Origin: Octopus vulgaris
Lineage: Eukaryota
Length of the DNA stretch: 64,000 nucleotides
Direction: 5' to 3'
NCBI GenBank assembly: GCA_951406725.2
Contig: OX597820.1
Location: forward strand, 106,826,001 to 106,890,000
Part shown: positions 22,451-64,000 of the stretch, piece by piece
How the letters are laid out: every line of letters begins with the position of its first letter
Position numbering within the stretch: position 1 is the stretch's first letter
Position numbers and translations under genes: made by a program
The notes under the pieces: model-generated
The model's database searches: none
The model's input: the letters and a program-made list of their open reading frames with translations, nothing else
Told to the model about the DNA's origin: nothing

Positions 22451-23843
22451 GTGAGCACTAAAGAGTAAGAAATAAATTCCTGGCTAGTTAAATATGTGAT
22501 ATGAGTTTGAGTGCTGGTCAGAGCTATTTGACTTCATTTATTATTTGTACCATTTTGTTGTAAAACACTACCTTTGTTTGCATTATGAAAATAATATAGA
22601 ATTTGAAAAAAATATATTTAAACAGACCACATCCAGTCTATCATTTTTACTTCCAAACTGGCCAGATCTAGCTTCCCACACCTACCCTGCAATGTCATTC
22701 TAAAAATAATCGCATCTTTGAAATTTCAAAGCTACAAGGTAATACAAGATTGATTTTTTTAAAATCTGAATAAATAAGCATTACATTTGACAAAGTAATC
22801 TGAGTGCTAAAGGGTTAAAGTAATGTTTGGCACATAAATTAACCCAAAATGTTATTTGATGTAATGTTTTAATTTAGATCATATTAAAAGAGGAAGTTTG
22901 TGACAAAGAACCAGGAGCAGTCTCAGGTGGGTTGGTATCAAAAAGGTTACAGCTCTCATAACTTGAAATAGAATGCCACAATATTCCATTTTCGCAATCT
23001 CTAAAATAAAACACTTTATACGCAATAAAAAAGAAACCTGTTATATAACTCTGAATCTATATATGATTTCTAGGTTGAAACACTATCAGATTTATGCTTT
23101 GTTTTAGTAAATTACAGGCATATATATTTTTAAAATAACTTAGTTGTGATTCTGTTCTGAAAGGATTTCAGTCATGTTGCTAATTCAATTGAATACAACA
23201 TATTACTGGTAATTAGTTTATCTTTGTTGTACACTTCAACAAAGAATGTACTCAAGACAAAAATGCTGCAAGATGTTTCTACCAACATACCACTTTCAGT
23301 ATATAAAACTGAGAATGTGTGTCTGTCTGTTTCCCTAAAACTTGAGAACTACTCAACCAATTTCATTCAAATTTTACACATGCCTTACTTAGGGTCCAGG
23401 GAGTGTCATCAGCAAAAAAAAATGTTCAACTTCTTGCCTAGAGCGAGCCCATAGCAATATCATATCTTCTCCACTATTTCAGTATTATGTGTTAAAAGTG
23501 AAACAAAAACATTTCTCTATTTTATGTCAGATACTTTCACTTTAACAATAAAAATTAGAGATAATAATAACAATTGAAGTATATGTAGTAAGTAATAATT
23601 AAAATCAAACTAAAGTATAATATAATAAGTAAATCTTGACATAACAAAAGTAAAAATAGCAATTGGTATAAAATTGCATCAATGACTTGAACTTGAATAA
23701 GTGGTTTCACATGAATGGGAATAAATTTAAAATAAAATTAGCATGCACAAATGGAATAGTCCAGATGGATAATAAAAAATTAAATTGAAGAAAAGACTAT
23801 TGTCTATAAAGTATACAATGTAGAGAAAAAAGAAGATTTGAAC

Positions 23844-23857
23844 ACCTGGAGGAAATC
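23844..23857 (+). repeat. Target-site duplication copy 1 (ACCTGGAGGAAATC)
   Basis: One mismatch to the identical copies at 26497-26510 and 31697-31710. Confidence 0.85.
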
Positions 23858-25614
23858 TATTTGCGTGTTGTTATCTGTGATTAGACGTTGAAATTTGTTG
23901 TGCAAAGTGATTAATATCGCGCGAGGCATTTGCCTCCACGTGTGAAAACCTTCCGAAGAAGGTGAATTGACCCTCTAGTCATGGCGACTTACGCGGGGGT
24001 CACGGGAAAGAAAAATAATGATTACTCGATAATCGTGAAGGATGTTTTCTTTGAGAAGAGTAAACTCAAAGAATACGAAAAGCTATTCAAAAGGGAGGGT
24101 GATAGCGTGAAGCTAATCCCCCCCGCGAAAGCAAAAGAGGACAAAGAAAACAAAACTGTAACGTATAGAACCCAGGACAAAAGTACAAAGAAACTGGCAA
24201 GAGTGGAGATAGCAGAGATCGAAAAATGTCTGGGAGACATAATGGATAAATCGACCTACGTGAGTAGAGGAAAAAATTTGGTACGGTGGAGGTGAGATGT
24301 GCAACGGAAGAAATTGCAGCCTCACTGGCTACCACTGTTCTAAGAGCGGAAACATTTATAATGTGGCCCTCATACAAGGGAAGAAGAGGGGTCCGGGTTA
24401 AAATCCCGAATATACCCCCAGAAGTAAAAACAGAATGGCTGGCAACAGCTATTCTAGGAGCAGCAGAAGAGGAAGTGGAGGTGGAATCCTTTAAGGAGTC
24501 CAACGCAGTAAATTGGAGAGGATATGGGGTAGAACTGTGTTTGATGGCCACAAAAGAGGACATTGAAAGGTTCCCCTATAGAATAGAAATCGAAGACGAG
24601 AAAACCCTCAGTGTAATTGTAGAGGGAAGAAAGCCAAACTGCTACTTGTGCGGGACAAGGGGGCACATTAAAAAAGAGTGCCCGTTATACGAATTCATAG
24701 CGGAGTATGAGAAGGAAATTGAAGAAAAGAAGAATACGGTAAATGAAAAAGAAAACATAGAAAAGGAGACAAAACAACAAGAGAAAGGAAATAATAAGTC
24801 AACGAAGGAAAAAGAAATAAAAGAAAAGAAAGAAATAGAACCAAAACAGAGTCAGGAAAAGAAAAAGGAAAAAGAAACAACAGGAAAAAAACAAGAGAGA
24901 GATCAGAATCAAACGAAAAGAAAAGACGGCACACAAAAAGAAAAAGAAAAGGAACATAAAACACGAGAGAAAGAGAGAACAGACAAAGAACCAAAAAGAC
25001 AAGAGAAGGAAGAAGAAAGAAAAGAAGGCAAAAAGAGAGAAAGAGAGAAACAAAGAGAGGAGAACAAGGAAGAAGTAAGCCCGAAAAGAAAAACGAGAGA
25101 AAACGTAGGACGGAAACAAGATTACTACAAGTTAATAACCTTCCATTTCAGCCCCGAAATGAAGGAATTGACATGTAGTACGGAGGGACATGTGTGGGTC
25201 AACAGGATGACTGATCAGTGGCAGGAGACTGCTCTGATCCCCGAAGAAAGAGTCGCTGAGTTCCTCAGAGCAGCTGGAGAGAGTGTAATTTTTTACACGG
25301 GTGTTCGAATGAAAGAGCGGCTGCCTGAGGGCTCAGTGATTGACTTTAGAGACTTGAAAGGTATTATGGAATACGTGTGAGATTGTGAGAGGAGAGAGAA
25401 GAAAGAAGAGAAAAAAGAAAAAAAAAATTGTGAACTATATGTGACGAAAATGTAACCTCTCGATTCCGGGGATCGAGTGGGCATTTGCATCTCATTGTAA
25501 ATATTCTTTCATTTGTCATTTTTATTTTTATTTTTTCCTTTTCTTGTCATTTCGCTTTCTTATTTTAAGTTCCCCGATTGTATTGTCCCCTCTATGTTCG
25601 CCCCTTGTGGGTAG
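23858..25614 (+). mobile_element. ORF1-only (HAL1-like) non-autonomous Tx1-type retroelement, copy A
   Basis: Starts TATTTGCGTGT like the LINE at 26511. Has a single gag-like ORF, no EN/RT, and ends in the 3' tail shared with the LINE, clipped after GGGTAG. Confidence 0.8.
23981..25380 (+). CDS. ORF1/gag-like protein of element A (N-terminal region homologous to LINE ORF1, CCHC knuckle, K/E-rich linker, C-terminal domain); one frameshift near 24271
   Basis: ORFs 23981-24295 and 24286-25380 join at an A6 run to give RGKKFGTVEV. Contains CYLCGTRGHIKKEC zinc knuckle. N-terminal half is colinear with ORF1 at 26723. Confidence 0.75.
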
Positions 25615-26495
25615 AAAAGAAGAATACTGTAAATGAAAAAGAAAACATAGAAAAGGAAACAAAACAACAAGAGAAAGGAAATAATAAGTCAATGAAGGAA
25701 AAAGAAATAAAAGAAAAGTAAGAAATAGAACCAAAACAGAGTCAGGAAAAAGAAACAACAGGAAAAATACAAGAGAGAGATCAGAATCAAACGAAAAGAA
25801 AAGACGGCACACAAAAGGAAAAAGAAAAGGAACATAAAACACGAGAGAAAGAGAGAACAGACAAAGAACCAAAAAGACAAGAGAAGGAAGGAGAAAGAAA
25901 AGAAGGCAAAAAGAGAGAAAGAGAGGAGAACAAGGAAGAAATAAGCCCGAAAAGAAAAATGAAGGAAAACGTAGGACGGAAACAAGATTACTGCTTCTAC
26001 AAGTTAGTAACCTTCCATTTCTGCCCTGAAATGAAAGACTTGACATGTAATACGGAGGGACATATATGGGTCAACAGGATGACCGATCAGTGGCAGGAGA
26101 CTGCTCTAATCCCCGAAGAAAGAGTCGCTGAGTTCCTCAGAGCTGCCGGAGAGAGTGTAATATTTTACATGAGTGTTCGAGTGAGAGAGCGGCTGCCTGA
26201 GGGCTCAGTGATGGACTTTAGAGAATTGAAAGCTATTATGGAATATGTATAGAATTGTGAGAAGAAAAAAAAAAAAAAAAAAAGAGAAAAAAGAAAATAT
26301 TGTGAAATATATGTGACGAAAATGTAACCTCTCGATTCCGGGGATCGAGTGGGCATTTACATCTCATTGTAAATATTCTTTCATATGTCATTTTTTACTT
26401 TTATTTTTTCCTTTTCTTGTCATTCGCTTTCTTATTTTAAGTTCCCCGATTGTATTGTCCCCTCTATGTTCGCCCCTTGTGGGTAGTAATAAAAT
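25615..26495 (+). mobile_element. 5'-truncated sister copy B of the ORF1-only element
   Basis: Homologous to 24725-25614 with substitutions and in-frame indels; complete 3' tail ...GGGTAGTAATAAAA; C-terminal ORF 25959-26252. Confidence 0.85.
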
Positions 26496-26496
26496 C

Positions 26497-26510
26497 ACCT
26501 GGAGGAAAGC
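26497..26510 (+). repeat. Target-site duplication copy 2 (ACCTGGAGGAAAGC)
   Basis: Identical to 31697-31710; lies between the 3' tail of B and the 5' end of the LINE. Confidence 0.85.
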
Positions 26511-26722
26511 TATTTGCGTGTATAGTAAGTTATTATATTTTGCCGTCGTATTTATTCTCTCCGTTATATTCTACTGTGTGTCTACCTGTCTTTGTTTATT
26601 GTTGTACAACTGTTGAAGTCAGCCTTCGTGCGAGGACTCCGTGGTGGTGTTCCCCCCTTCGTGGGGGAAAAAATATCATTTATCTTGGATTTACCAAGGG
26701 CTTGTTAAGCCAGTTGTTCGAG

Positions 26723-28069
26723 ATGGAATCCCCCATCTCATATTCTCCCGTGACTAGTGAAGAAGAATCTCTGGCGGTGTTGCCAAAGAAAAAAGAGGCG
26801 GTGTCGCCAAAGAAAAAAGAGGCGGTGGCGCCAAAGAAAAAGGAAACCCCTGCACCAGCACCAGCACCAGCGAAAAAATTCTCAGAAGTAGCTGGCAAGA
26901 AAATCAAAAAAATAAACGTCGAAGACTTGGAAAAATATGTGGACTGTGTTACAAAAGAGGGCACGGAAGTGACAGTGGTCTCAAACGCCCAAAAACATGA
27001 AGAAATCGAAAAAAGAAGAATAATCTATAAGACCTTTAATACGACAACCAAAATGATACAAAAAATTGAGGAAAAAAAAATCGAGAATTGTTTAAAACCA
27101 TTAATGGACAAGATCACATACATCAACAGAGAAAAGAGATACGGCACAGTAGAGGTGCGTTTCACAACAGAGGAGATAGCAAAAAAACTGTCGATGGAGC
27201 CAATAAAAGCGGAGAATATTGTTCTCCTCCCCTTGTATAGAGGAAAAAGAACATCGAAAATCACGATGAATAACATTCCGCCAGAGGCAAATGCCGAATG
27301 TCTGGTGGCAGCAGTCATGGTAGGCCTGGAGGAAAAAATAAACATCCTCCAGGCCACAGTAGAGGAGGAGGAATTTTGGAAAGGGCAGCGGATAGTAATA
27401 GCCATTCAGGCAGAAATTCAAACACTGGAGGAGATTCCAGAAACCCTAAAAATAAGTGAAGACGATAGAATAACAGTTTTCGTAGAGGGCAGAAAGCCGA
27501 GGTGCTTCGGCTGCGGCAAGAAGGGTCATGTAAGAGCGGAATGCCAACCCCAACCCAAACCGCAGGAAGCACCTCAGCCAGGTGAAAAAGAAGATGAAGT
27601 GTCACCAGAAGCAGCGCCGGGTGGCCCAGAAGAGACGACTGAAGGTGTGGAAGTGACAGAGGCAGCAGAACCAGTGGCAGAGGAAAAAAAGAGCAATGAG
27701 GAGGGGTGGTCAAAAATCACCAGAAAAAAAAGAAAAACGGAAACCACCCCTCCAAGAGTGATCCAAAAGAAGAAAAGAGAGTCGATGAACCCATATATGG
27801 CCGTTAAGGCATCAAACAACAGACTCGGGAACGTGTTGGCAGCTATGGCCAAAGTGGAAAGAATAGGAAAAAAGAATGACTATATAGTTTACAGAATAGG
27901 CCGGAAGGATTACGGGCGGATAAAGTCCGAATTCTTTCATGACGTAGGCCCGCTCAGAATGGATTTAACATCTCCATATATATTCGAGGGCCTACGTCAG
28001 ACTCCCCCACGAGGCCCAGAAAAAGAGATAAACAAAGAAGAAAAAGAGAAAACCGAACCACTGATATAA
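26723..28069 (+). CDS. Tx1 ORF1 (gag-like, CCHC zinc knuckle), 448 aa, intact
   Basis: ATG at 26723 (MESPISY...); three AVxPKKKE repeats plus PAPAPAPA; CFGCGKKGHVRAEC knuckle. Confidence 0.85.
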   Translation: MESPISYSPVTSEEESLAVLPKKKEAVSPKKKEAVAPKKKETPAPAPAPAKKFSEVAGKKIKKINVEDLEKYVDCVTKEGTEVTVVSNAQKHEEIEKRRIIYKTFNTTTKMIQKIEEKKIENCLKPLMDKITYINREKRYGTVEVRFTTEEIAKKLSMEPIKAENIVLLPLYRGKRTSKITMNNIPPEANAECLVAAVMVGLEEKINILQATVEEEEFWKGQRIVIAIQAEIQTLEEIPETLKISEDDRITVFVEGRKPRCFGCGKKGHVRAECQPQPKPQEAPQPGEKEDEVSPEAAPGGPEETTEGVEVTEAAEPVAEEKKSNEEGWSKITRKKRKTETTPPRVIQKKKRESMNPYMAVKASNNRLGNVLAAMAKVERIGKKNDYIVYRIGRKDYGRIKSEFFHDVGPLRMDLTSPYIFEGLRQTPPRGPEKEINKEEKEKTEPLI

Positions 28070-28078
28070 AGGTAAGTA

Positions 28079-31000
28079 ATGGATTACATTTATGTTGGTT
28101 GTTTGAATGTGCGCGGCCTGGGAGCAGGCTGGAAGCAAGGTCGCTTCCTGCATGATATCAGGTCGCGTAATTTAGATGTTATTGTTGCTACAGAAACCCG
28201 GTTAGAGGGGCCAAGAGGTCTACTCCCGCTGTTTGACGGCTATGAGAGTTTTTTCTCTCCTGGCGGAAGTGGGGTGTTGGTCCTAATAAAAAGAAACCGG
28301 GTTTCTGAGAAAAAGTTAATTTTTGCAGATCCAGAAGGTAGGCTGGTCGTCATGGATTTGACATTCAGTAACGGTAAAGTTATCAGACTGGTTGCAATAT
28401 ACGCACCCAACCATACAGGGCAAAGTGATTATTTTCGTGAACTAGAAAACTTTCTTGGTACTTCGCATTCATTAGTTGTGCTAGGTGACTTTAACACAAT
28501 TTGCAAAGCGGATGTAGATTGTGTTGGCTTGCGTTCAGATAGAAAAGGTAACAGTGGCTTCATGGAACTGCTAAGCCGCTTTGAGCTAGCAGATCCTTAT
28601 AGGCTGGAATTTCTGAACGCTCCATTGTGGACATGGTCAAACAGCGACGGATCTTCCAGGTCATAATTAGATAGAATACTAATTAGAAAAGTAGACAGAA
28701 AAATAGCTAAGTGTCCACAGTTTTACCCGATCAGCTACAGTGATCATAAAATGGTCACCTGTAAGCTTGACATAGATAAGGTTAAAAATAGAGGATCCGG
28801 TTACTGGAAACTTAATACGTCCCTTTTGGCGATTAAGGAGTACAAAGACCGGATTAGGGATATAATTCAGAGGGCACTATCTGGTACCATCATTAATAAC
28901 AAATGGTGGTACGCCCTCAAACGAGCCATCAAGTTCGAGTCAATTAGATATAGCATAGGAGTAGTGGCTAGAGAGGCTAGAAGGGAAACTACTCTAGTTA
29001 AGGAATTAGAGGAAGCCTTGAAAACTGGCTCTGCGGCTCAGGTGGCGTCCAAGAGACTGGTGTTAAACCAGCACCTCGAGGCCAAACACATGGGCTGCAT
29101 TGTCAGGGCTAGAATCCGCCATATGGGATGTGAAGGAATCAACGCCGTGAGATGGGCCCGAGTGGTGGAAGCACAGCATGGTAACGATGCCACGATTCGA
29201 TCTTTGACGAACCAACAAGGTGAGTTGATAAACGAACCCGAGGAGATGTGTGAGGCCTTTCAGGAGCACTTCGCTCAGCTTTTCGGTGAGTGCGGCGGAC
29301 TGGATAGGAGGAGGGCCTTTACGGACCTACTTGACGGGCTGCCGCGCTTATCGGGGCGAGATGCGGAGGGCTGTGAAGGGCCAATCACGCCTGAGGAGGT
29401 GGTTGAGGCAATGGCGGACTGCGGCGCGGGCAAGGCGCCGGGTTTGGATGGTCTACCCTATGAGTTATATAAGAGTATGCCAGACTTGTTCGGGCACCTA
29501 CTAGCGGAGGTCTATGCGAACTGGCAGCAGAACGGGCTTATACCCAGATCTGTGCGCCGGGGAGTAGTGACTCTCGTCAGAAAGGACTCGAGCAAGGGGG
29601 AGTGCATTGATAATTTCAGGCCCATCACTCTGCTAAACACAGAGTTGAAGATTTTGGCCAAAGTGTTATCGAAAAGATTGGCGCGTGTCGCGGATGGTCT
29701 GATCGGAGGGGCACAGACATGTGCCGTTCCGGGCAGATCCATTCAGGATAATCTCCATCTAATGCGGTACACTATAGAGGGGTTTAATAGTGATTCTGGC
29801 AAGGGTGGGGCACTGGTCCATTTAGACCAATCTAAAGCTTTTGATAGGGTCGACCATCATTACCTGGTATCTGCCCTGGCACGGTTCGGGCTGAGCCTTG
29901 GCTTCCTCAGGTGGATTATCCAAATTTATGATAACATCGACTCGGTAGTTCGGGTGAACGGCTTCTTGTCGAAGCCGTTCAAAATCAAACGCTCGGTTCG
30001 TCAAGGGTGTCCGCTCTCCCCGCTTTTGTACGTGATGGCTCTTGAGCCATTACTGCGAAAACTGAGCGGCATCCTGAGACAGCCAGGTAATGGAAAATCA
30101 GTGTCAGCGTATGCGGATGACATCACCATCATCGTAACCAAAATGGACCACCTATGTAAAGTAGGCAAGGCCATAGAGGTTTACGAGACGGTGACAGGAG
30201 CAAAAGTTAATCGCGAAAAGTCAGTCGGCTTGCAACTCGGCACCTGGAGAGGCAAGTCGATGCCTCCTGACAGCGTCGTGGGACGTTGGACGGAGGGTCC
30301 GATTAAATTGCTAGGGGTCTGGTTCGGTCCAGACCTCCAAATAGAGAAGAATTGGGGCGAGGTAATGAGCAAGGTGGCTGCAGTAGCCAAGACCTGGTCT
30401 TGGCGGTGGCTATCCTTGAAAGGGAGGGCGGAGGTGGCCAATGTGTTTATCGCATCGGTTATCACCTACCGCCTTTCCGTCGTTCCTTGCCCTGATTCGT
30501 GGTTGATCAAGTTGGAAAGACAGCTCTTCTACTTCTTGTGGAAGGGCCGGAAACCACTTGTGAAACGCTCTACTTGCTGTCAACAACCGTTAAAGGGTGG
30601 GCTAGGGATGCCTTGGCTGATGATGCGCTGAGGTTAAGACATCTGTGGCTCTATCTGGATGGTGAACGGGTGTGGTCTTCGCTAGCAAAACTGATGTTTC
30701 CCAAGTTCACTAGTTTCGGTGGATGGGAAACCTGGCTGAATCGTAGATCGAAACTTGGTACTTGGTACACGGAGTGTCGCAAGGCTCTCCTGCTATTCCG
30801 TCGCTCGGGTAACGCCTGCGGTGGGGGTTCCACCACATTCTTCTATAGAGGGTTGGTAGAGGCGGAATGTGAAGATACCTTGGGAGAAGCCCTAGGTCTC
30901 GACGATAATCAGCTGGCCAGTCTGTTCTGACGTACGTTCAAGCCGAAGACACTGGACAACTTCCAGAAGTCCCTGGCATGGCAATGTTACAGAGGAGCTC

Positions 31001-31452
31001 TACCTGTTCGGGATAAACTCGCAAGGCACGGAGGCCAAGACAGTCCGATATGTCCAAGATGCGGGTGGGATAGGGAAACCGTCCCGCACGCTATTGTTCA
31101 TTGTCCGGACGTGTCTGAGGTGTGGGTTTATACCGAACAGCTGTTGTCAGGTACACGAAGAGTACAGCTGTCGACTGAGTCGATTACAAAAATTGACCCA
31201 CCGGATTTCCTCGCGAAAGAAGGTAAGTTTTGTTTTCTCGTTGTAGTAGCAATTGCGAAAGAGGTGATATGGAAGACGAGAATGAAAGGTCTACAGTCAG
31301 GCAAGTTCATCTCCGGCCCTGGTTTGATGAATTATTTCATCTTTCACCTGAAAAGGAAGATAGGGCTGGAGAGAATATGCCTGACTAGGAGAGTGTACGA
31401 AGAACGATGGAAAGATGTAGCACGTAAGTTGCGAGTGAAAGATACAACATAA
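28079..31452 (+). pseudogene. Tx1 ORF2 (AP endonuclease + reverse transcriptase + C-terminal zinc finger) with 3 visible lesions
   Basis: EN motifs NVRGL, IYAPN, LGDFN, LDR, SDH; GYWKLN linker; RT motifs PGLDG, FRPITLLN, LDQSKAFDRV, VRQGCPLSP, YADD (30110); CPRC...H....C finger. In-frame stops at 28664 and 30928 and a frameshift near 30625. Confidence 0.9.
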
Positions 31453-31696
31453 ATGTAAACCAAACGAAACCAAAAGTATCAGTGGGGAGGCGGGGCTCGT
31501 GGGGTCCGAGCTAAACCCGCACCCACTCCACCCGTAATGTCTTACGGTCTGTTCCATCATTCGATTTTGTGTCTATTTTGTAATTTCATGTAAATTTTTA
31601 AATTCGATTTATTGTAAAAACCCATTCGTGTGTCTGACCCCACATCAGATTGTATTGTCCCATCTATGTTCGCCCCTAGTGGGTAATAATAAAACA

Positions 31697-31710
31697 ACCT
31701 GGAGGAAAGC
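31697..31710 (+). repeat. Target-site duplication copy 3 (ACCTGGAGGAAAGC)
   Basis: Follows the LINE 3' tail and continues directly into the ORF1 relic. Confidence 0.85.
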
Positions 31711-32169
31711 ACCATTGAAAATATGAAAGATATCTAACCAGAGGTGGTAAGTTCGCCACAATAGAAGCAAGGTTCGAGTCAACGGAGCATGCAAGGGAGT
31801 ACTCGACTCGAACTCGCAAATTGGAAATATTTTATTTTTACCTTTATATCTGGGACGTGCTGGATAAAAATTTTTAATGCCCCCCACCTAGAAGTTGAGG
31901 TAGGCTGGATTGTAGCCATGCTTCTATACAAGAGGGAGCACAAGATACAATTGATCGAAATTGCAAGAGACGGGCTAACAATTCCAGTCTGTTATATATT
32001 TTGAGTATTGTTATCACTAGCGATATCAAGATATAATTTTGTATTTTATGTGTAGATGTATATATATAGATGTACATGTAATATGTACACATATATATAT
32101 ACATGCACTAGCACTATGACCCGGCAACGACGGGTCATAATGCTAGTAATGATATAAAGATTAATTATA

Positions 32170-32340
32170 CAAGGGCTGTATGGTTAAGAAGTCTGCTTTC
32201 CAACCATGTAGCTTGAGATTCAGTCTCCCTACATGGCACCTTGGGTAAGCGTCTTCTACTATATCCCTGGATTGATCAAAGCCTTGTGAATGGATTTGGT
32301 AGCCAGAATCAGAAAGAAGCCCATCATATATATGCGTGTG
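32170..32340 (+). mobile_element. tRNA-headed SINE (5' part)
   Basis: ggctgtatggttaagaag head and conserved body caaagccttgtgaatggatttggtag...aaagaagcccatc; many copies in the window (e.g. about 7165, 10485, 11455, 21295, 42310, 43690). Confidence 0.7.
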
Positions 32341-34135: not shown

Positions 34136-36063
34136 CATCATCATCATCATGGTTTAACGTCCGCTTTCCATGCTAGCATGAGTTGGACGATTTGACTGAA
34201 GTCTGGCGAACCAGATGGCTGCACCAGGCTCCAATCTGATCTGGCAGAGTTTCTACAGCTGGATGCCCTTCCTAACACCAACCACTCCAAGAGTGTAGTG
34301 GGTGCTTTTACGTGCCACTGGCATGAGGGCCAGCCAGGCGGTACTGGCAATGCCCACACTCAAATGGTGTTTTTTACGTGCCACCTGCACAGGAGCCAGT
34401 CCAGCGGCACTGGCAATGACCTCATTCAAATGTTTTTTCACGTGCCACCGGCATTTTTACATGACACCAGCACAGAAGCCAGTCAGCTTCTCTGGCAACG
34501 ATCACACTCAGATGGTACTCTTAGCGCTCCACTGGCATGGGTGACAGTCATCGAATTTGATTCGATTTCGATTTCACTTGCCTCAAGCAGAGTTTAGTGT
34601 CCAATGAAGGAAAGGTACGTATAAGTGGGCTGGTTACAGCCCTGGCATAAGCCACGCGTTATGGTCTCACTTGGCTTGCCGGGTCTTCTCACATACAGCA
34701 TATTTCCTAAGGTTTCGGTCACTAGTCATTGCCTCGGTGAGGCCCAATGTTTGAAGGTCATGCTTCACCACATCATCCCAGGTCTTCCTGGGTCTACCTC
34801 TTCCACAGGTTCCCTCAACTGCTAGGGTGTGGCACTTTTTCACACAGCTATCAACATCTATTCTCGCCACATGACCATACCAGCGCAATCGTCTCTCTTG
34901 CACACCACATCTGATGCTTCTTAGGTTCAACCTTTCTCTCAGGGCACTAACACTCTGTCGAGTATGCACACTGACATTACACATCCATCGGATCATACTG
35001 GCTTCATTCCTTGCAAGCTTACGCATGTCCTCAGCAGTCACGGCCCATGTTTCACTGCCATGTAGCATGGCTGTTTGTACACATGTGTCGTACAGTCTAC
35101 CTTTTACTCTGAGTGAGAGGCCCTTTGTCACCAGCAGAGGTTAGAGCTCTCTGAACTTAGCCCAGTCTATTCTTATTCTAGCAGCTACACTTTCAGTGCA
35201 CCCTCCCCTGCTACTGACTTGGTCACCTAGGTAATGGAAGCTATCAACTACTTCTAGTTTTTTTCCCTTGAATGTGGCGGAAGTTGGTCTCTGGACATTT
35301 TCAGTGTTATTTATAGCACCAGAGCATCTGCCACATACAAAAACTATCCTCCCAGTTAGCCTTCCTTTGATATTGCTGTACCTCTTGTGTCCATAGCTTA
35401 CACTGGGTACATCTTATGGAGTTTCTACCTATGCCTTTTCTACAGATCGAACAGGGCCATCTACCTGAAGGCATTTGTGACTTGTCTACCTTCCTACTTA
35501 TTAGGACTTTGGTTTTAGCTAGGTTGACGCTAAGGCCCTTCAATTCTAATCCTTGCTTCCACACCTGAAACTTCTCCAGTTCTGATAGTGACTCAGCAAT
35601 TACAGCAAGGTCATAAGCATAGAGGAGCTCCCGGGGGCATGCTGTCTTGAATTCCTCTGTTATTGCCTGGAGGACTATGATCGAAAGGAAGGGGTTGAGG
35701 ACTGAACCTTGTTGGACCCCTACCTCTACCCGGATTTCTTCCCTGTACTCGTTGCCAGCTCTCACCTTACTATCCCTAGTTTCCTCATTGACCACCAGAT
35801 AAGGGATCGGAGGACCCTGTCAAAGGCTTTCTCCATGTCAACAGAAGCCAGGTACAGGGGTTTATCTTTGTCTAGGTATTTCTCCTGCAGCTGTCTTACC
35901 AGAAATATAGCATCAATGGTGCTTTTCCCTGCATCTCATCTAAGCTGACTCTCTCCCTAATTAGTTGGGCTATAACCCACTCCGTGACCTTCATTACCGG
36001 ATCTAACAACTTGATGCCTCAGTTATTATTTGTATCTAAAGCGTTACCTTTACCTTTGTAGCA
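34136..36063 (-). mobile_element. 5'-truncated RTE-like LINE with (CAT)n tail
   Basis: Minus ORFs 35307-35795 (GVQQGSVL, PHD-like cysteines) and 34667-35131 (MLHGSETW, RLRWYGHV, GRGRPRKTW); 3' UTR with short tandem units. Confidence 0.9.
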
Positions 36064-45480: not shown

Positions 45481-46528
45481 TCATCATCATCATCATCATC
45501 GTTTAGCGTCCGTTTTCCATGCTAGCATGAGTTGGACGGGTCAACTGGGGTCTGTGAATCTGGAAGGCTTCGTCAGGCCCAGTCAGATCTGGCAGTGTTT
45601 CTACGGCTGGATGCCCTTCCTAACGCCAACCACTCCGCGAGTGTAGTGGGTGTTTTTTACGTGCCACCTGCACAGGTGCCAGACAGAGCTGGCGAACGGC
45701 CACGAACGGATGGTGCTTTTACGTGTCACCGGCACGGGGCCAGGCGATGCTGGCAACGGACACGAACGGATGGTGCTTTTACGTGCCACCGACACGGGGC
45801 CAGACAGAGCTGGCAACCGGCCACGAACGGACGGTGCTTTTACGTGTCACCGGCACGGGGGCCAGCCGAGGCTGGCAACGGACGCGAACGGATGGTGCTT
45901 TTACGTGCCACCGACACGGTTGCCAGACAGAGCTGGCAAACGGCCACGAGCGGACAGTGCTTTTACGTGTCACCGGCACGGGGGCCAGCCGAGGCTGGCA
46001 ACGGACACGGACGGATGGTGCTTTTACGTGCCACCGACACGGGGCCAGACAGAGCTGGCAAACGGCTACGAATGGATGGTGCTTTTACGTGTCACCGGCA
46101 CGGGGGCCAGCCGAGGCTGGCAACGGACACGGACGGATGGTGCTTTTACGTGCCACCGACACGGGGCCAGACAGAGCTGGCAAACGGCCACGAACGGATG
46201 GTGCTTTTACGTGCCACCGACACGGGGCCAGACAGAGCTGGCAAACGGCTACGAATGGATGGTGCTTTTACGTGTCACCGGCACGGGGGCCAGCCGAGGC
46301 TGGCAACGGACACGGACGGATGGTGCTTTTACGTGCCACCGACACGGGGCCAGACAGAGCTGGCCAACGGCCACGAACGGACGGTGCTTTTACGTGTTAC
46401 TGGCACGGGGCGAGGCGAGGCTGGCAACGAACACGAACGGATGGTGCTTTTATGTGCCACCGACACGGGGCCAGGCAGAGCTGGCAAACGGCCATGAGCG
46501 AATGGTGCTTTTACGTATCACCGGCAAT
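45481..46528 (-). mobile_element. RTE 3'-UTR-only insertion with an expanded minisatellite
   Basis: (CAT)n tail at 45482-45500; 45500-45665 is the reverse complement of the RTE tail at 56115-56290. Confidence 0.85.
45650..46528. repeat. About 60-bp GC-rich minisatellite, about 15 units of two mostly alternating variants
   Basis: Core GGTGCTTTTACGTG followed by CCACCGACACGGGGCCAGACAGAGCTGGC or TCACCGGCACGGGGGCCAGCCGAGGCTGGC. Confidence 0.95.
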
Positions 46529-46580
46529 GTGGATAAATAAGTGTTAGATTTGATTGAATAATCTGAATGCTAAGAGTTAA

Positions 46581-48649: not shown

Positions 48650-49061
48650 GTATGTATTAAGTTTTTAAGTTAATGAAAGTGATGATGAGATAGATATGAG
48701 TTTGTGTGTGTGCTCACGTCCTCTGCATCATGCAACAATTGTAAGCAAGCATCACTGTCATACAAACTGTTGTTTCCAATCTTTCCTAAAAATACATGTG
48801 GCCACAGGGAAATATTACCTTGCTTGGAAACAGGTAAGTGTTAGTGACAAGAAGGATATCCAGCTGGAGGAAATCTGTCAAAAAATTACATCTGACCCAT
48901 GCAACCATGATAAAGTGGGTGTTAAAATGATAACTTATATTTTAAACACAGATGTGTATTTGACATGCTGAACATATATTTATATGTTCTTTTTGATATT
49001 GATATTCCTTTGATGAACTATTGATTATCTTAAAAAGTACTTAAGTGTTTTATAAATATCT

Positions 49062-50133
49062 GAAAATGTACAGAAAATAGATTCCATCAACTGCCAGGGG
49101 GATAAAGTAGAGGCAGTTGATAGCTTTTGTTATCTAGGTAATCATGTTAGTAGCCGAGTTGGGTGCTTTGAGAGAGTAGCTGTGAGAATAAGATTAGGCT
49201 GGGCAAAGTTGAGAGAGCTCCTACCTCTGCTGACAACAAAGGGCCTCTTCCTCAGAGTGAAAGGCAGATTGTATGATGCCTGTGTATGAACAGCTATGCT
49301 ACATGGCAGTGAAACATGGTCAGTGACAGCCAAGGACATGCATAGGCTTAAAAGAAATTAAGCCAGCATACTTCACTGGATGTGCAATGTCAGTGTACAT
49401 GTTTGACAGAGTGTAAGCATCTTGAGAGAAAAGTTAGGCATAAGAGGCTTCAGATGTGGTGTGCAAGAGAGATGACTGTGCTGGTATGGTCATGTGATGT
49501 GTATGGACGAGGACAGTTGTGTAAAGAAGTGTGGATCTCTAACTGTAGAAGGTACCTGTGGTAGAGGTAGACCCAGGAGTACATGGGACGAGGTGGTGAA
49601 GCATAATTTTTGAAGTTTGGGACTCACAGAGGCAATGACTGGTGACAGAGACCTTTGACAATATGCTGTGCTTGAGAAGACCTGTCGATCCAAGTGAAAT
49701 TGTAGTCATGGCTGATGTTAGTGTCATGTAACTGGCACCCATGTTGGTGGCATGTAAAAAGCACCTTTTGAACATTAGGCCTCACAGAGGTAAATTAGCT
49801 GATGCTAGTGACACATGAAAAACTCCTTTCAAGTATTGTGCTTCATGGAGGCAATGACTGAGACCTTTGGATTATGTCATGCTTGAGAAGACCCATCAAA
49901 CTAAGTAAAATCACAGTTGTGGCAGATACTGCTGTCACACAAATGGCACCTGTGCTGGTGGCATGTAAAAGCACCTATTACACTCTTGGAGTGGTTGGTG
50001 TTAGGAAGGGCATCCAGCCAAAGAAACCAAGCCAAATCAGACTGGAGTCTGGTGAAGCCTTCCAGCTTGCCAGCACTGGTCAAACCATCCAACCCATGCC
50101 AGCATGGACGATGAACATTAAATGATGATGATG
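49062..50133 (+). mobile_element. 5'-truncated RTE-like LINE in FLII intron 5
   Basis: Homologous to 55180-56293; (GAT)n tail at 50122-50133. Confidence 0.85.
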
Positions 50134-51972: not shown

Positions 51973-52962
51973 GTTAGTCATCCTCTTAATTATCATTCCC
52001 TGTAAATTTCATTACTAACAACATATAATTGTTTTCTTTTGTGTGTAATTCCTAATTGCCTTTTAATCTTAAACCAAATAAAGTTCCTATGTAGGTTCCA
52101 TTTCCTCTCCCTTTATGATCTTCATAACAACATTCAGCACCTGCAAATTACTGAAAATACATCTTAGAAATCATAGGACAGTTGACTGTTTAACATTTTG
52201 GTAGGGTTTACAAAAACTGTAAACAAACTGAACCCAAATTTATTGTAGTTAGCATTACAGCATTCTTGCCTTCCTTCCTGCACAAGTTGTATTCTTCCTC
52301 CTCTGTTTAAGCCATTACAAAAAAAAAAAATTGTGTTGACTCTTAATATATTCAAAAATGTTACTGGAATTTTCTAGAAAAAAAAACAAAACAATCTCTC
52401 AAGTATATCAAAAGATTCCGTATGTACAGAGTATGCATTTATTTGTTTTAGGTTAATTAAAATATATTTGTGACATGCTTTAACTTTAAAAGGCAAATTT
52501 ACTACAGTTACCATGGAGAATAAAAATTCTCTCTTATTGTAAACGGTGTAAAAATGCCATCTCTTTCCAGTGCTTCACTCTAACAGTGAATTTGCTTTTA
52601 GAAGTTAAAGTCAGTCACAAACCTATCTTAACTAACCTACAGTTTGTTTATTCCTAATCAGTGCTTGGCACTGATGCTGCTATTTTTATTCCAGCCCGGC
52701 AATCCACTAGCACCACTCAGTCATTGATGTTGACTGTTTTTAGTTAAATCTTTGGCTTTGAATCTGTCCAGGATTATCTTCCTTTGAGGAAGACTAAAGA
52801 ACCAGAAACATGTGTCTGGGAATTGCTAGAGGGAAGCACTGGGCAAATTATGATGTTTTTACACCTTTTAACATCGAGAGAATTTTTTTCTCAATGATAA
52901 CTGCAGTGAAATTCACTGCCTTTAGAAGTTAAAATATATCACAAACATATTTTAACTAACCT

Positions 52963-55900
52963 CACAGGCAAAGAACACAGGTACAAGATTTTCTGGGCAG
53001 GGAACACTGATGGGGTTGGGGGCATAGGTATACTTCTCGCTGAAAAATGGGTAGATAAGGTAATTGAGGTAATCAGAGTATGTGACAGAATACTTAAGAT
53101 TAGATTAGTCCTTCATCATGGATTAGCAACCATTATATCGGCCTATGCCCCTCAGCTGGGGCTACCCGATGGACAGAAAGACCGATTCTATGACACCTTA
53201 CTGCAGACTACCTCGTTGACGAAGGACAGAGACCTTCTCTTTGTGGCTGGTGACTTCAATGGGCATGTTGGACAACATACTGGGGGCTTCCGTGGTGTAC
53301 ATGGAGGTTATGGTTCCCGCAACGAGGAGGGAACCAGGCTGCTGGAGTTCTGCGATGCAAATGATCTTATGGTTTGCAAGACTAACTTCAGGAAACCTAC
53401 CAGTCACCTAGTCACCTACTGATCGGGCCGACATACTAGCCAAATTGACTACATCCTTGCCAGGAAAAGGGAAAGATGGCTGCTTATAAATGCCAAAACC
53501 TTCCCAGGCGAAGAATGTACCCCACAACATAGACTGGTAGTTAGTGACTTTAGGATCAGGACTAAGAGGACGACCAGAAGACGACCAACATGGAGAAGAA
53601 GGGTCTGGAAGCTTAAAGATCCTGCGAATGGACAGAGATTTAGGGACATATTATTTGAAGCCTTTGACGAAGTAGAAGGGGATATAGCTTCACATGGGGT
53701 AGAAGACAACTGGAGGTTTCTAAGGGACAACCTGCTGAGAGCCACTGACAAGATCTGTGGTTGGTGCAAAGTTCCCTCTTGACCTAAAATAACATGGTGG
53801 TGGAACAATATTGTTGACAGGGCTATTAGAGAAAAGAGACAGGCTTGGAAGGACTGGAAGAATGGTGGTATCAGGGAATCGTATCAGACTGCCAGAAGAG
53901 AAGCCAGGAGACAGGTTTATGTAGCCAGAGGGGAAGCAGATAAGAAAAAATTTGCCAATGTTCTGCGTTGTGAGGACCAAAGACTTGAGGTATTTCATGT
54001 TGCAAGACAGTGTGTGAGAGAGAATTGTGATGTGGTAGGAGATAAATGTGTTCGCATGGATGATGGTTCACTTGAAAGAGGTTTGGAGACGCCATTATGA
54101 AAGGTTGCTGAATAAAGAAAATGAATGGGATAAAGAGTCTGCTGAATGTCGACCCAACAGAGGGACCAGCTACCCAAGTTGACAGTTCCTTGGTAGTTAA
54201 GGCAATTAGAAGCATGAAGACAGGGAAAGCCCCAGGCCCATCAGGAATTACTGCAGAGATGCTCAAAATATCTGGTAGTGTCAGCTATAGCCTAGTCACC
54301 CGTATAGTTAACCAGGTGATACACAAAGGAGTCATACCCAATGACTGGTGTAGCAGCATAATAGTCAACTGCTACAAAGGTAAAGGTGACGCCCTAGATA
54401 CAAATAATTACAGAGGTATCAAGCTGTAGGGTCAGGTAATGAAGATTACGGAGAGGGTCATAGCCCAACTAATTAGAGAGAGAGTTAGTTTAGATGAGAT
54501 GCAGTTTGGGTTCGTGCCAGGGAAGAGTACCACTGATGCTATATTCCTGGTAAGACAGCTGCAGGAAAAATACCTAGCCAAAGATAAGCCCCTGTACCTG
54601 GCTTTCATTGACATGGAGAAAGCCTTCCACAGGGTCCCCCGATCCCTTATCTGGTGGTCAATGAGGAAACATGGGATAAATAAATGGTTAGTGAGAGCTG
54701 TGCGAGCCATGTACAGGGACGCTGCTAGTAAGGTGAAGGTTGGCAACGAGTATAGTGAAGAATTCCGTGTAGAGGTAGGGGTCCACGAATGTTCAGTCCT
54801 CAGCCCCCTCCTATTTATCATAGTCCTCCAGGCAATAATGGATGAATAGCTCCTCTATGCTGATGACCTTCCTCTAATTGTTGAGTCACTATCAGAACTG
54901 GAGGAGAAGTTTCAGGTGTGGAAGCAAGGATTAGAATCGAAGGGCCTTAGAGTCAACCTAGCTAAAACCAAAGTCCTAATAAGTAGGAAGGTAGACAAGT
55001 CACAAATGCCTTCAGGTTGATGGCCCTGTTTGATCTGTAGAAAAGGCGTAGGTAGAAACTCTATAAGATGCACCAAGTGTAAGCTATGGACACATAAGAG
55101 GTGCAGCAACGTCAAAGGAAGGCTAACTAGGAAGATAGTTTTTGTATGTGGCAGATGCTCAGGAGCAATAAACACTGAAAATGCACAGAGACCAACTTCC
55201 GCCACATTCCAGGGAGAAAAACTAGAAATAGTTGATAGCTTCCATTACCTAGGTGACCAAGTCAGTAGCGGGGGCGGGTGTGTTGAAAGTGTAACTGCTA
55301 GAGTAAGAATAGCTTGGGCAAAGTTCAGAGAGCTCTTACCTCTGCTAGTGACAAAAGGCCTCTCGCTCAGAGTAAAAGGCAGACTGTATGATGCATGTAT
55401 ACAAACAGCCATGCTACATGGCAGTAAAACATGGGCCGTGACTGCTGAGGATATGCGTAAGCTCGTGAGGAATGAAGCCGGTATGCTCCGATGGATGTGT
55501 AATGTCAGTGTTTCATACTTGACAGAGTGTAAGTACCTTGAGAAGCATCAGTTGTGGTGTGCAAGAGAGACGTTTGCGCTGGTATGGTCATGTGGCAAGA
55601 ATGGATGAAGATAGTTGTGTGAAAAGGTGCCACACCCTAGCGGTTGAGGGAGCCTGTGGAAGAGGTAGACCCAGGAAAACCTGGGACGAGGTGGTGAAGC
55701 ATGACCTTCGAACTTTAGGTCCCACTGAGACCTTTGGAAGTATGCTGTGCGTGAGAAGACCCGGCAGGACAAGTGAGATCATAACCCATGGCCTCTACCT
55801 GGGATGTAGCCAGTCCACTTATGCATACCTTTCCTTCTTAGGACACAAATCTCTGCTTGCGAAAACCTGTTGAGGCAAGTGAAAATCAAAATCGATCAAC

Positions 55901-61169: not shown

Positions 61170-61575
61170 GTAAGAAAATCTTTTCCTTCAAACTGATATT
61201 TGGGCTCATATTTGTGAAAAACAACCTCTTTAGTGACATTTTCTTGTGACTATGTTCTTTAGTCTAAACTTTTACTTTAATCATATATATATAGAAAATG
61301 ATTAGTAAGTATTGAAATAAAATTCTATTATATGGTGTGATGTATATTAGGATTTGATGAATTGCATGGGGACTTCTATCTCTAAATGACATATATTTCC
61401 TTATCGAGCATAAATCATTTTATTTGAATCCCTGTGTCGCTGGAATTTTTATTCCATAATAAATAAAATAATACATAGATATATATATATTATATTTCAG
61501 AATGGTCATTTTGCCAGTTTATATATATGTATATATATATATATATATATATACATATATGTATATATACATATA

Positions 61576-61615
<40 letters not shown>

Positions 61616-61619
61616 GGTG

Positions 61620-61661
<42 letters not shown>

Positions 61662-62153
61662 CAAAATAAGAAAATGGAGAAATACACCTTAATCAATAAT
61701 CAACTACCAGATAATACCCAATCACATAATTTATTAAACCACTACATATGAACATCAAGGTCAAACATAATAGTATAGAACAAAACAATGCACATCAATG
61801 AGTAATATGATACAATAAGTACAATATGTATAAGAGAATATAAATAAATATAATTGTAAACTACATCTTAGAGCTGTTTCAGCCATGAAGATATGGGTAT
61901 CTCATTATGGTCATATTAGCCAGGTGTGATAAGTTAATATGTGGTTATAAATGAGACACTTACAATAATATCCCAAGGCCGCTTCAGAAATTATAAAGTA
62001 CAAACTAAACTAAATATGAATATCAGAGGAGGTACACCCATACAAGAGTGGGTACAGCCATAATATATATATATTATATATATATACATATACATATGAG
62101 TGCATATGTTATCCCATGGTGGGTTGCACTCACAACACCTATCTCAATTTGTA

Positions 62154-64000
<1,847 letters not shown>

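Follow-up and report, generated by a model that had tools for sequence, protein, structure and literature searches.

We describe a set of retrotransposons in the genome of Octopus vulgaris that insert repeatedly at one fixed site within a dispersed Helitron. The system was met in a window of 64,000 nucleotides (the whole stretch of DNA that was analysed: GenBank assembly GCA_951406725.2, contig OX597820.1, positions 106,826,001 to 106,890,000 of the forward strand; coordinates below are those of the window unless a contig is named). A long interspersed nuclear element (LINE), family C, and families A, A2 and D, which encode only the first open reading frame (ORF1), occupy this site in mixed arrays. 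We propose, with a probability of roughly two in three, that they reach it by what is likely target-primed reverse transcription in which the RNA carries the 5′ junction of its donor copy to the new site. The system is real, genome-wide and target-specific, and its landing pad is a non-autonomous Helitron.

In the window a 14-mer is matched without mismatch at 23844, 26497 and 31697, and every one of these copies is an element junction, as an earlier reading made from the window alone (the sequence-only reading) had noticed. One additional match, at 48862, has one mismatch, and a shuffled-sequence control gave a mean of 0.72 matches at up to two mismatches. The insert consists of A, B and C in 5′ to 3′ order, and its two flanks are a single sequence that it interrupts. 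The sequence-only reading held that these flanks rejoin into a decayed ORF1 related to those of the inserts, and this is borne out: uninterrupted (empty) sites number at least 1,494 across the genome (at most one mismatch), and in one natural uninterrupted copy (L080) the fragment is 38% identical to the ORF1 of C over 101 amino acids (E 3e-23), 34% to that of D and 30% to that of A2. The site does lie in ORF1-derived DNA of a related family, and the number of empty sites fits the multicopy safe harbor that had been envisaged.

The empty sites also identify the host. Aligned with one another, they form one sharp-ended element of ~1.05 kb (short form) to 1.7 kb (long form), which starts with TC and ends with a subterminal hairpin and CTRR followed by T, the termini of a Helitron. 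This 3′ end was detected in 24 of 40 empty loci, with T as the next base in all 24. Among 20 stretches surrounding a RepHel domain (PF14214), 10 end in a similar hairpin and CTRR-T, and the host 5′ end is 86% identical over 35 bases (E 8e-6) to the end of one RepHel-coding Helitron; the host thus has its ends in common with RepHel-coding elements. Most host copies have A before them and T after them, in flanks that are often TA runs. Within the Helitron lies the 5′ part of a retroelement, namely a 5′ untranslated region (UTR) and the first ~170 codons of ORF1, ending before the zinc knuckle. Helitron copies without this fragment occur at 92 sites, and a tree of copies with and without it gave no order of origin.

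The genome-wide reach of the system is seen from the 3′ tail that A, B and C have in common, which has 215 exact matches in the 2.8 Gb genome. The first 100 of these (contigs C1-C7) were grouped into 53 clusters, whose site classes were tallied by hand, S9 and S48 being assigned to the Helitron by the 5′ flank alone. Twenty-nine clusters lie at the main Helitron site (site 1) and 7 at a second Helitron site (site 2, window 31981). Of the rest, a second low-copy repeat holds 5 and a repeat resembling a short interspersed nuclear element (SINE) 1, and 11 lie elsewhere; sites matched to none of the Helitron, the second repeat or the SINE-like repeat are counted as single on that basis. Hence 36 of the 53 clusters have Helitron flanks, against the more than 20% of flanks of one sequence type in Kojima's rule for target specificity (PMC4494074). 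Exact junctions between tail and site 1 number at least 121 genome-wide, or about 7-8% of the sites (the two counts differ in stringency). The check that the sequence-only reading had suggested, on the flanks downstream of the tail copies, shows the site to be enriched, and its claims of sequence-specific insertion and of repeated use of one site hold. The second target repeat has 56 pattern matches (L216-L227; clusters S23, S30, S42, S44 and S45) and adjoins a transposon remnant that, from its transposase motif, we take to be mariner-like.

Invading families and their arrays

By its domains, C is a LINE of the L1/Tx1 group. Its ORF2 contains an N-terminal APE endonuclease (PF03372), a reverse transcriptase (RT; PF00078) and a C-terminal zinc motif (PF13966); its closest solved structure is human L1 ORF2p (E 3e-53, versus 6e-24 for R2), and among named proteins those most similar to it belong to Argonauta hians (64%). 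We use the Tx1 label provisionally, on the basis of the ORF1 type (PMC5203782); no named Tx1 reference was among the matches of C in the relative and structure searches. The ORF1 of A matches the CCHC knuckle PF00098; that of C has an aligned knuckle and no Pfam match. ORF1 look-alikes in the atlas are CCHC/RRM proteins at 0.90-0.92, which we take as a lead only. An ORF2 of at least 1,129 amino acids is present in 3 of 29 near-full-length C copies.

The site is also used by no fewer than three families (A, A2 and D) that encode ORF1 only and whose 3′ tails are related. Their units of 1.67-1.92 kb contain only ORF1, end in a LINE-type tail and have copies with duplications of their own, which are the features of HAL1-like elements. 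For A, to which our selection figures are confined, variants shared by at least three arrays in codons 1-240 comprise 37 synonymous and 11 non-synonymous changes; since its ORF1 is under purifying selection, A is a family and not debris. Only 2 of 57 A copies read through, and 40 share a C-run shorter by one base, either an assembly error or real. The D tail has 123 exact matches genome-wide; of the first 30, 8 abut site 1 itself, 20 abut another array unit or Helitron DNA, and 2 are found elsewhere. In the D part of one array (L102, ~G000:C1:108563100-108566800) lies a LINE that has a D-type tail and shares 77% identity with C; it is a candidate for the autonomous partner of D. Units of ~1.8 kb that have a tail variant of their own and match none of A, A2, C or D (L253, L252, L143, L258 and L263) occupy the 5′ end of several arrays and are likely a fifth family. 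Finally, an abundant SINE-like repeat (L098, G000:C1:66314961-66315050, and many other loci), presumably OR2-like, has last 25 bases nearly the same as the tails of A, C and D, and one truncated C is inserted within a copy of it.

The arrays are head-to-tail, contain up to 23 units and mix families, usually in the 5′ to 3′ order D, then A or A2, then C. Copies within one array belong to different subfamilies, with the youngest at the 5′ end; in S3, S9, S10, S16, S26 and S52, copies diverge more from a young A copy the nearer they are to the 3′ end. In S52 (L158-L165, G000:C7:100087000-100147000), a single Helitron contains 22 A units and a C, and an incomplete second copy lies 15 kb downstream. 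In nine unlinked array pairs, picked for close A copies, A differs by 0.2-1.1% and the host flank by 2.9-12.6%; because the hosts are far more diverged than their cargo, the insertions took place after the Helitron had spread. In two trees filled and empty hosts are interspersed, and private host variants are duplicated in place in S7, S18, S45 and S48.

Altered 5′ junctions and a proposed mechanism

The junctions of these insertions are asymmetric. The 3′ junction is fixed, and the 3′ copy of the duplication keeps the allele of the host. The duplication is 15-19 bases long, mostly 16, in truncated copies where it can be read, and not 14. Among full-length first insertions at site 1, the 5′ copy differs from the 3′ copy within the 14-mer in 25 of 27, and in 13 of the 27 (by hand) a change falls within the first 12 bases. 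An altered 5′ copy is seen in none of the 11 truncated copies with a readable duplication (P 6e-8 against 25 of 27; the truncated copies without one, in S5, S6, S11, S17, S21, S28 and S49, are left out of the 11). Over all full-length junction pairs, 52 of 84 are altered. The differing base of the first 14-mer in the window is not decay, and the identical change is found at the 5′ junction of many full-length copies. The sequence-only reading had considered that the 14-mer might instead be a constant part of the 5′ end of the elements; it is so to the extent that the 5′ copy is often overwritten, but the duplication is real.

The alterations recur. The same multi-base patches are found at unlinked loci, with both host alleles, at different array depths and ahead of A, A2 and C alike (one set in S0, S24, S33, S36 and S40, another in S6, S18, S19, S25, S37 and S41). 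In S22 the 5′ copy reverts a private variant of the host, and in S2 and S18 the allele of the host is swapped. Sequence also crosses between targets: a C copy in the Helitron site of S48 begins with 16 bases of the site in the second repeat, a C copy at a single site (S12) bears the junction of that repeat, and two C copies in the second repeat (S42 and S45) carry an identical extra 5′ piece. At the 5′ edge of arrays, full-length D mostly has one recurring junction that replaces the duplication and several upstream bases. Identical patches, reversion, swapped alleles and cross-target pieces together require a template from another locus. Moreover, the 3′-most copy is full-length at 37 of 42 repeat sites versus 1 of 11 single sites (hand tally, P 1.5e-6), and the site of that sole full-length copy resembles its leader.

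We therefore put forward a hypothetical mechanism. The ORF2 endonuclease would nick the bottom strand at the site, with cleavage of the top strand ~16 bases downstream, and a C-type RT would copy A, A2 and D in trans through their tails. Transcripts would start in or upstream of the 5′ duplication of the donor, as the junction sequences suggest, and the end of the finished cDNA would then be target-like, anneal at the new site and prime the second strand, overwriting part of the 5′ duplication. That transcripts carry the donor junction and anneal with it is likely by analogy with R1 and R2, for which this has been shown. Where leader and target have no homology, integration would end by truncation. 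As every new copy restores a usable site on the 5′ side of the array, growth would take place there.

Several observations weigh against this proposal. Among full-length junction pairs, 32 of 84 are unaltered. A11, A21, A31 and A65 are near-identical copies of A, with 7-12 differing bases in the pairs compared, yet each has a junction of its own, and an altered junction matches that of the nearest relative elsewhere in one case only (A24 in S9). About half of the changes at first insertions touch bases 13-14 only and may be the first bases of the element itself. The proposal accounts neither for the source of the variants nor for the share of transversions, 69 of 80 counted changes, which are not independent. 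The excess of truncation at single sites could reflect selection against full-length copies, and the single sites could include further repeats. The absence of insertions from the long form of the Helitron (20 of 40 empty sites) is not explained by the proposal. In S52, identical neighboring copies indicate that the 22-unit A array is in part a product of local amplification.

The proposal can be extended to an address that is largely written in RNA, with a loosely specific endonuclease and full-length integration wherever the donor 5′ leader pairs with the target. Target choice would then be inherited with the transcript and shared through the arrays between the autonomous and ORF1-only families; the address would be rewritten upon landing in a new repeat, and the arrays would be dated records of its evolution. 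We offer this extension tentatively, as possible but doubtful.

Targeting by protein alone, in which the endonuclease or a different domain of ORF2 reads the DNA upstream of the nick, is in our judgment unlikely, although part of the data is as it predicts. The upstream flank is constant while the downstream side of the sites varies widely, and in 5 of 13 single-site insertions the first four bases are those of the commoner site-1 allele. Junction changes would here arise anew by error-prone copying or short template switches, some of them giving inverted copies of nearby target or tail; indeed, several patches are reverse complements of adjacent target or tail bases (a post hoc observation), and junction and body subfamily are only weakly linked. 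What this alternative does not explain is the same patches at unlinked loci, the reversion of a private variant, the swapped alleles and the 16-base target pieces elsewhere, nor why truncated copies made by the same enzyme are unaltered in 11 of 11. The RNA-borne junction accommodates these, and it is the reading that we prefer.

Three further observations concern the same junctions. Many altered array junctions gain a CpG that is absent from the empty site, and one common 5′ variant has 7 bases complementary to the tail; promoter selection and fold-back copying are possible leads. The 5′ end of A folds with the unaltered junction (z -3.05) and most junction variants break the pairing; a conserved RNA structure or internal guide in the 5′ UTR of A was rejected, as the variants do not keep the fold. 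A scan of 23200-32300 against Rfam gave nothing at gathering score, including no known ribozyme such as the HDV-like one of R2 leaders, and its low-score matches were on TA-rich DNA only.

Origin of the target site

The sequence-only reading went further and took the target to be a free third Tx1 family that is thereby disabled. Its corresponding account of the system, in which the lineage evolved to target and disable the ORF1 of a free competitor and the Helitron acquired the target piece later, we consider very unlikely. The main site does lie in ORF1-derived DNA, and diversity within groups is highest (6.1% versus 4.5-5.0%) in a long form that retains the 5′ UTR and start; by this measure the fragment is old, and the family it came from may have died out. 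However, the ORF1 piece lies without its knuckle between Helitron ends, and no free copy was found. A pattern for the end of the fragment without Helitron downstream gave 19 matches, of which 18 are in Helitron copies with small indels or breaks and 1 is unrelated, with neither Helitron similarity nor ORF1 context; this search used an exact anchor, which a diverged family could escape. A protein search found no longer relative of the fragment ORF1, which is weak evidence, and neither search found an uninterrupted ORF1 continuing past the fragment outside the Helitron. Nor is ORF1 DNA required at the site, since 7 clusters lie at the 3′ edge of the fragment (site 2), one of them in a Helitron copy without any fragment, and 5 lie in an unrelated repeat.

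The two Helitron forms point the same way. The 32 filled hosts with a readable backbone junction are all of the short form, versus 16 short, 20 long and 4 unclear among 40 empty sites (P 9e-8), and the long-form marker, sought in the fetched clusters, was found in none; the cargo, moreover, is much younger than the dead hosts. We conclude that the target site is a dead ORF1 fragment of a related family inside a Helitron, and that there is no sign of a live third family. Thus the search for empty sites and a host consensus that had been suggested yielded abundant empty sites but a Helitron as host, not a third Tx1 family. Compared post hoc, site 1 and the opening 16 bases of the fragment agree at 11 of 16 positions (long-form copies L032 and L062; in the window, 23763-23769), as if the fragment had a junction of its own at its start.

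The least probable account of all is chance capture of a LINE by a small number of Helitrons, with spread by rolling-circle copying and arrays made by unequal crossing-over: S33 and S36 share an array architecture and part of S52 consists of identical neighbors, but host flanks several-fold to ~30-fold more diverged than the cargo contradict it as a general account, filled hosts form no clade, private host variants were duplicated on the spot, and the arrays mix subfamilies and families, four of which use the site.

Relation to known systems and features of the locus

Transposon-targeting Tx1 elements are already described, including Xenopus Tx1 in the piggyBac element Tx1D, crocodilian Tx1-Mar and SINEU in Mariner-N4_AMi, Tx1-9_AMi in Harbinger, and Tx1-8_Crp and Tx1-4_AMi in long terminal repeat (LTR) retrotransposons (PMC4494074); a retrotransposon as the target of a retrotransposon, of which the sequence-only reading knew no description, is already known for Tx1. 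Like these, the octopus system has an APE-type L1/Tx1 LINE whose fixed site lies in a multicopy, non-autonomous transposon and is also used by non-autonomous riders, and a duplication that separates tandem copies. Unlike them, its host is a Helitron with the site in captured ORF1 DNA of a relative, its riders encode ORF1 and are not SINEs, its arrays reach 23 units of four or more families, and its 5′ duplications are altered, a feature without mention in the available text on those elements (PMC4494074).

The mechanism that we propose has its closest parallel in R1 and R2. R1 tandem arrays grow by insertion into the 5′ duplication of a resident copy, and in melanogaster-type R1 and many R2 elements upstream target RNA anneals to the site and passes on junction variants (PMC2718515, PMC3774820); the 9-base deletion of R1 has its counterpart in D, where target bases lying upstream of the nick are lost in a fixed manner. 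However, R1 and R2 reside in co-transcribed, essential 28S rDNA and the octopus elements in a dispersed, dead transposon (PMC2718515, PMC3774820), with no known ribozyme found across 23200-32300 and with many coexisting junction variants that cross families and targets. Families A, A2 and D resemble HAL1 (half-L1) in being non-autonomous, in having ORF1 only and in retaining a LINE-type 3′ end; in the text consulted, HAL1 derives from mammalian L1 and is not site-specific, whereas several octopus families share one site (PMC5753468). HeT-A, a further element that forms arrays, has no RT. The arrays of HeT-A, TART and TAHRE are likewise non-LTR, head-to-tail and in one direction, and upstream sequence contributes to the transcript of the downstream element; those Jockey-clade elements, however, lie at chromosome ends, have no duplication between units and serve a host function, whereas the octopus arrays are interstitial (PMC5537684). 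A repeat annotation of O. vulgaris lists 13 recently active L1-Tx1 families, and the words "target" and "nested" do not occur in its main text (PMC13282606). We found no literature description of a Helitron-targeting Tx1 or of this octopod system in a search that lay outside Repbase, subscription papers and the supplements of PMC4494074.

Of most interest here are the Helitron host, the ordered arrays of several families and the sign of a landing address that travels with the RNA. The Helitron joins the transposons that serve the L1/Tx1 group as landing pads, and here a whole community, one LINE group and three or more ORF1-only families, lives on one dispersed site. The ordered arrays amount to many natural before-and-after pairs of one junction, from which top-strand cleavage and second-strand priming, the stage of LINE integration that is understood least, can be read in a genome. 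Should the leader indeed help to choose where full-length copies land, this would account for the frequent target switching in the Tx1 group and would bear on site-directed insertion with non-LTR elements.

The locus in the window reads as follows, all on the + strand. The 5′ backbone of the Helitron occupies 23300..23762, bounded as in the empty copies and with its 5′-terminal TC decayed, and is followed by the left part of the retroelement fragment (23763..23857), of the short form, in which ~570 bases of 5′ UTR and ORF1 start are absent after 23769. The 5′ copy of the site-1 duplication (23844..23857) is altered at position 13. Element A (23858..25614, 1.76 kb), of a young ORF1-only subfamily, has an ORF1 at 23981-25380 with a single frameshift near 24280 and a CCHC knuckle, and the last bases of its tail are clipped. 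B (25615..26496) is the 3′ half only of an older A copy, 91% identical to A; its border with A has no duplication, and it is likely the product of a post-insertion deletion or a truncated copy. The middle copy of the duplication (26497..26510), the 14-mer match, precedes the 5.19 kb element C (26511..31696), in which ORF1 (26723-28069) is open and ORF2 (28079-31452; APE endonuclease, RT and zf-RVT) is interrupted by a stop at 28664, a frameshift near 30630 and a further stop near 30929. The 3′ tail common to A, A2 and C lies at 31648..31696, with further copies at 25576 and 26448. The 3′ copy of the duplication (31697..31712) is identical to the empty-site allele and begins the right part of the dead ORF1 fragment (31697..31975, placed by ORF1 comparison). 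The 3′ backbone (31976..32146) contains site 2, empty here (31981..31996, at the edge of fragment and backbone), the subterminal hairpin (32118-32136) and the CTRR end (32143-32146), then T.

Elsewhere in the window, pieces of another LINE family lie in both orientations at 34667-35819 (-), 49045-49697 and 52910-55729 and include RT, endonuclease and a PHD-finger ORF. A low-complexity stretch without stops at 45526-46547 gives rise to long frames, and a long microsatellite block spans 61348-64000.

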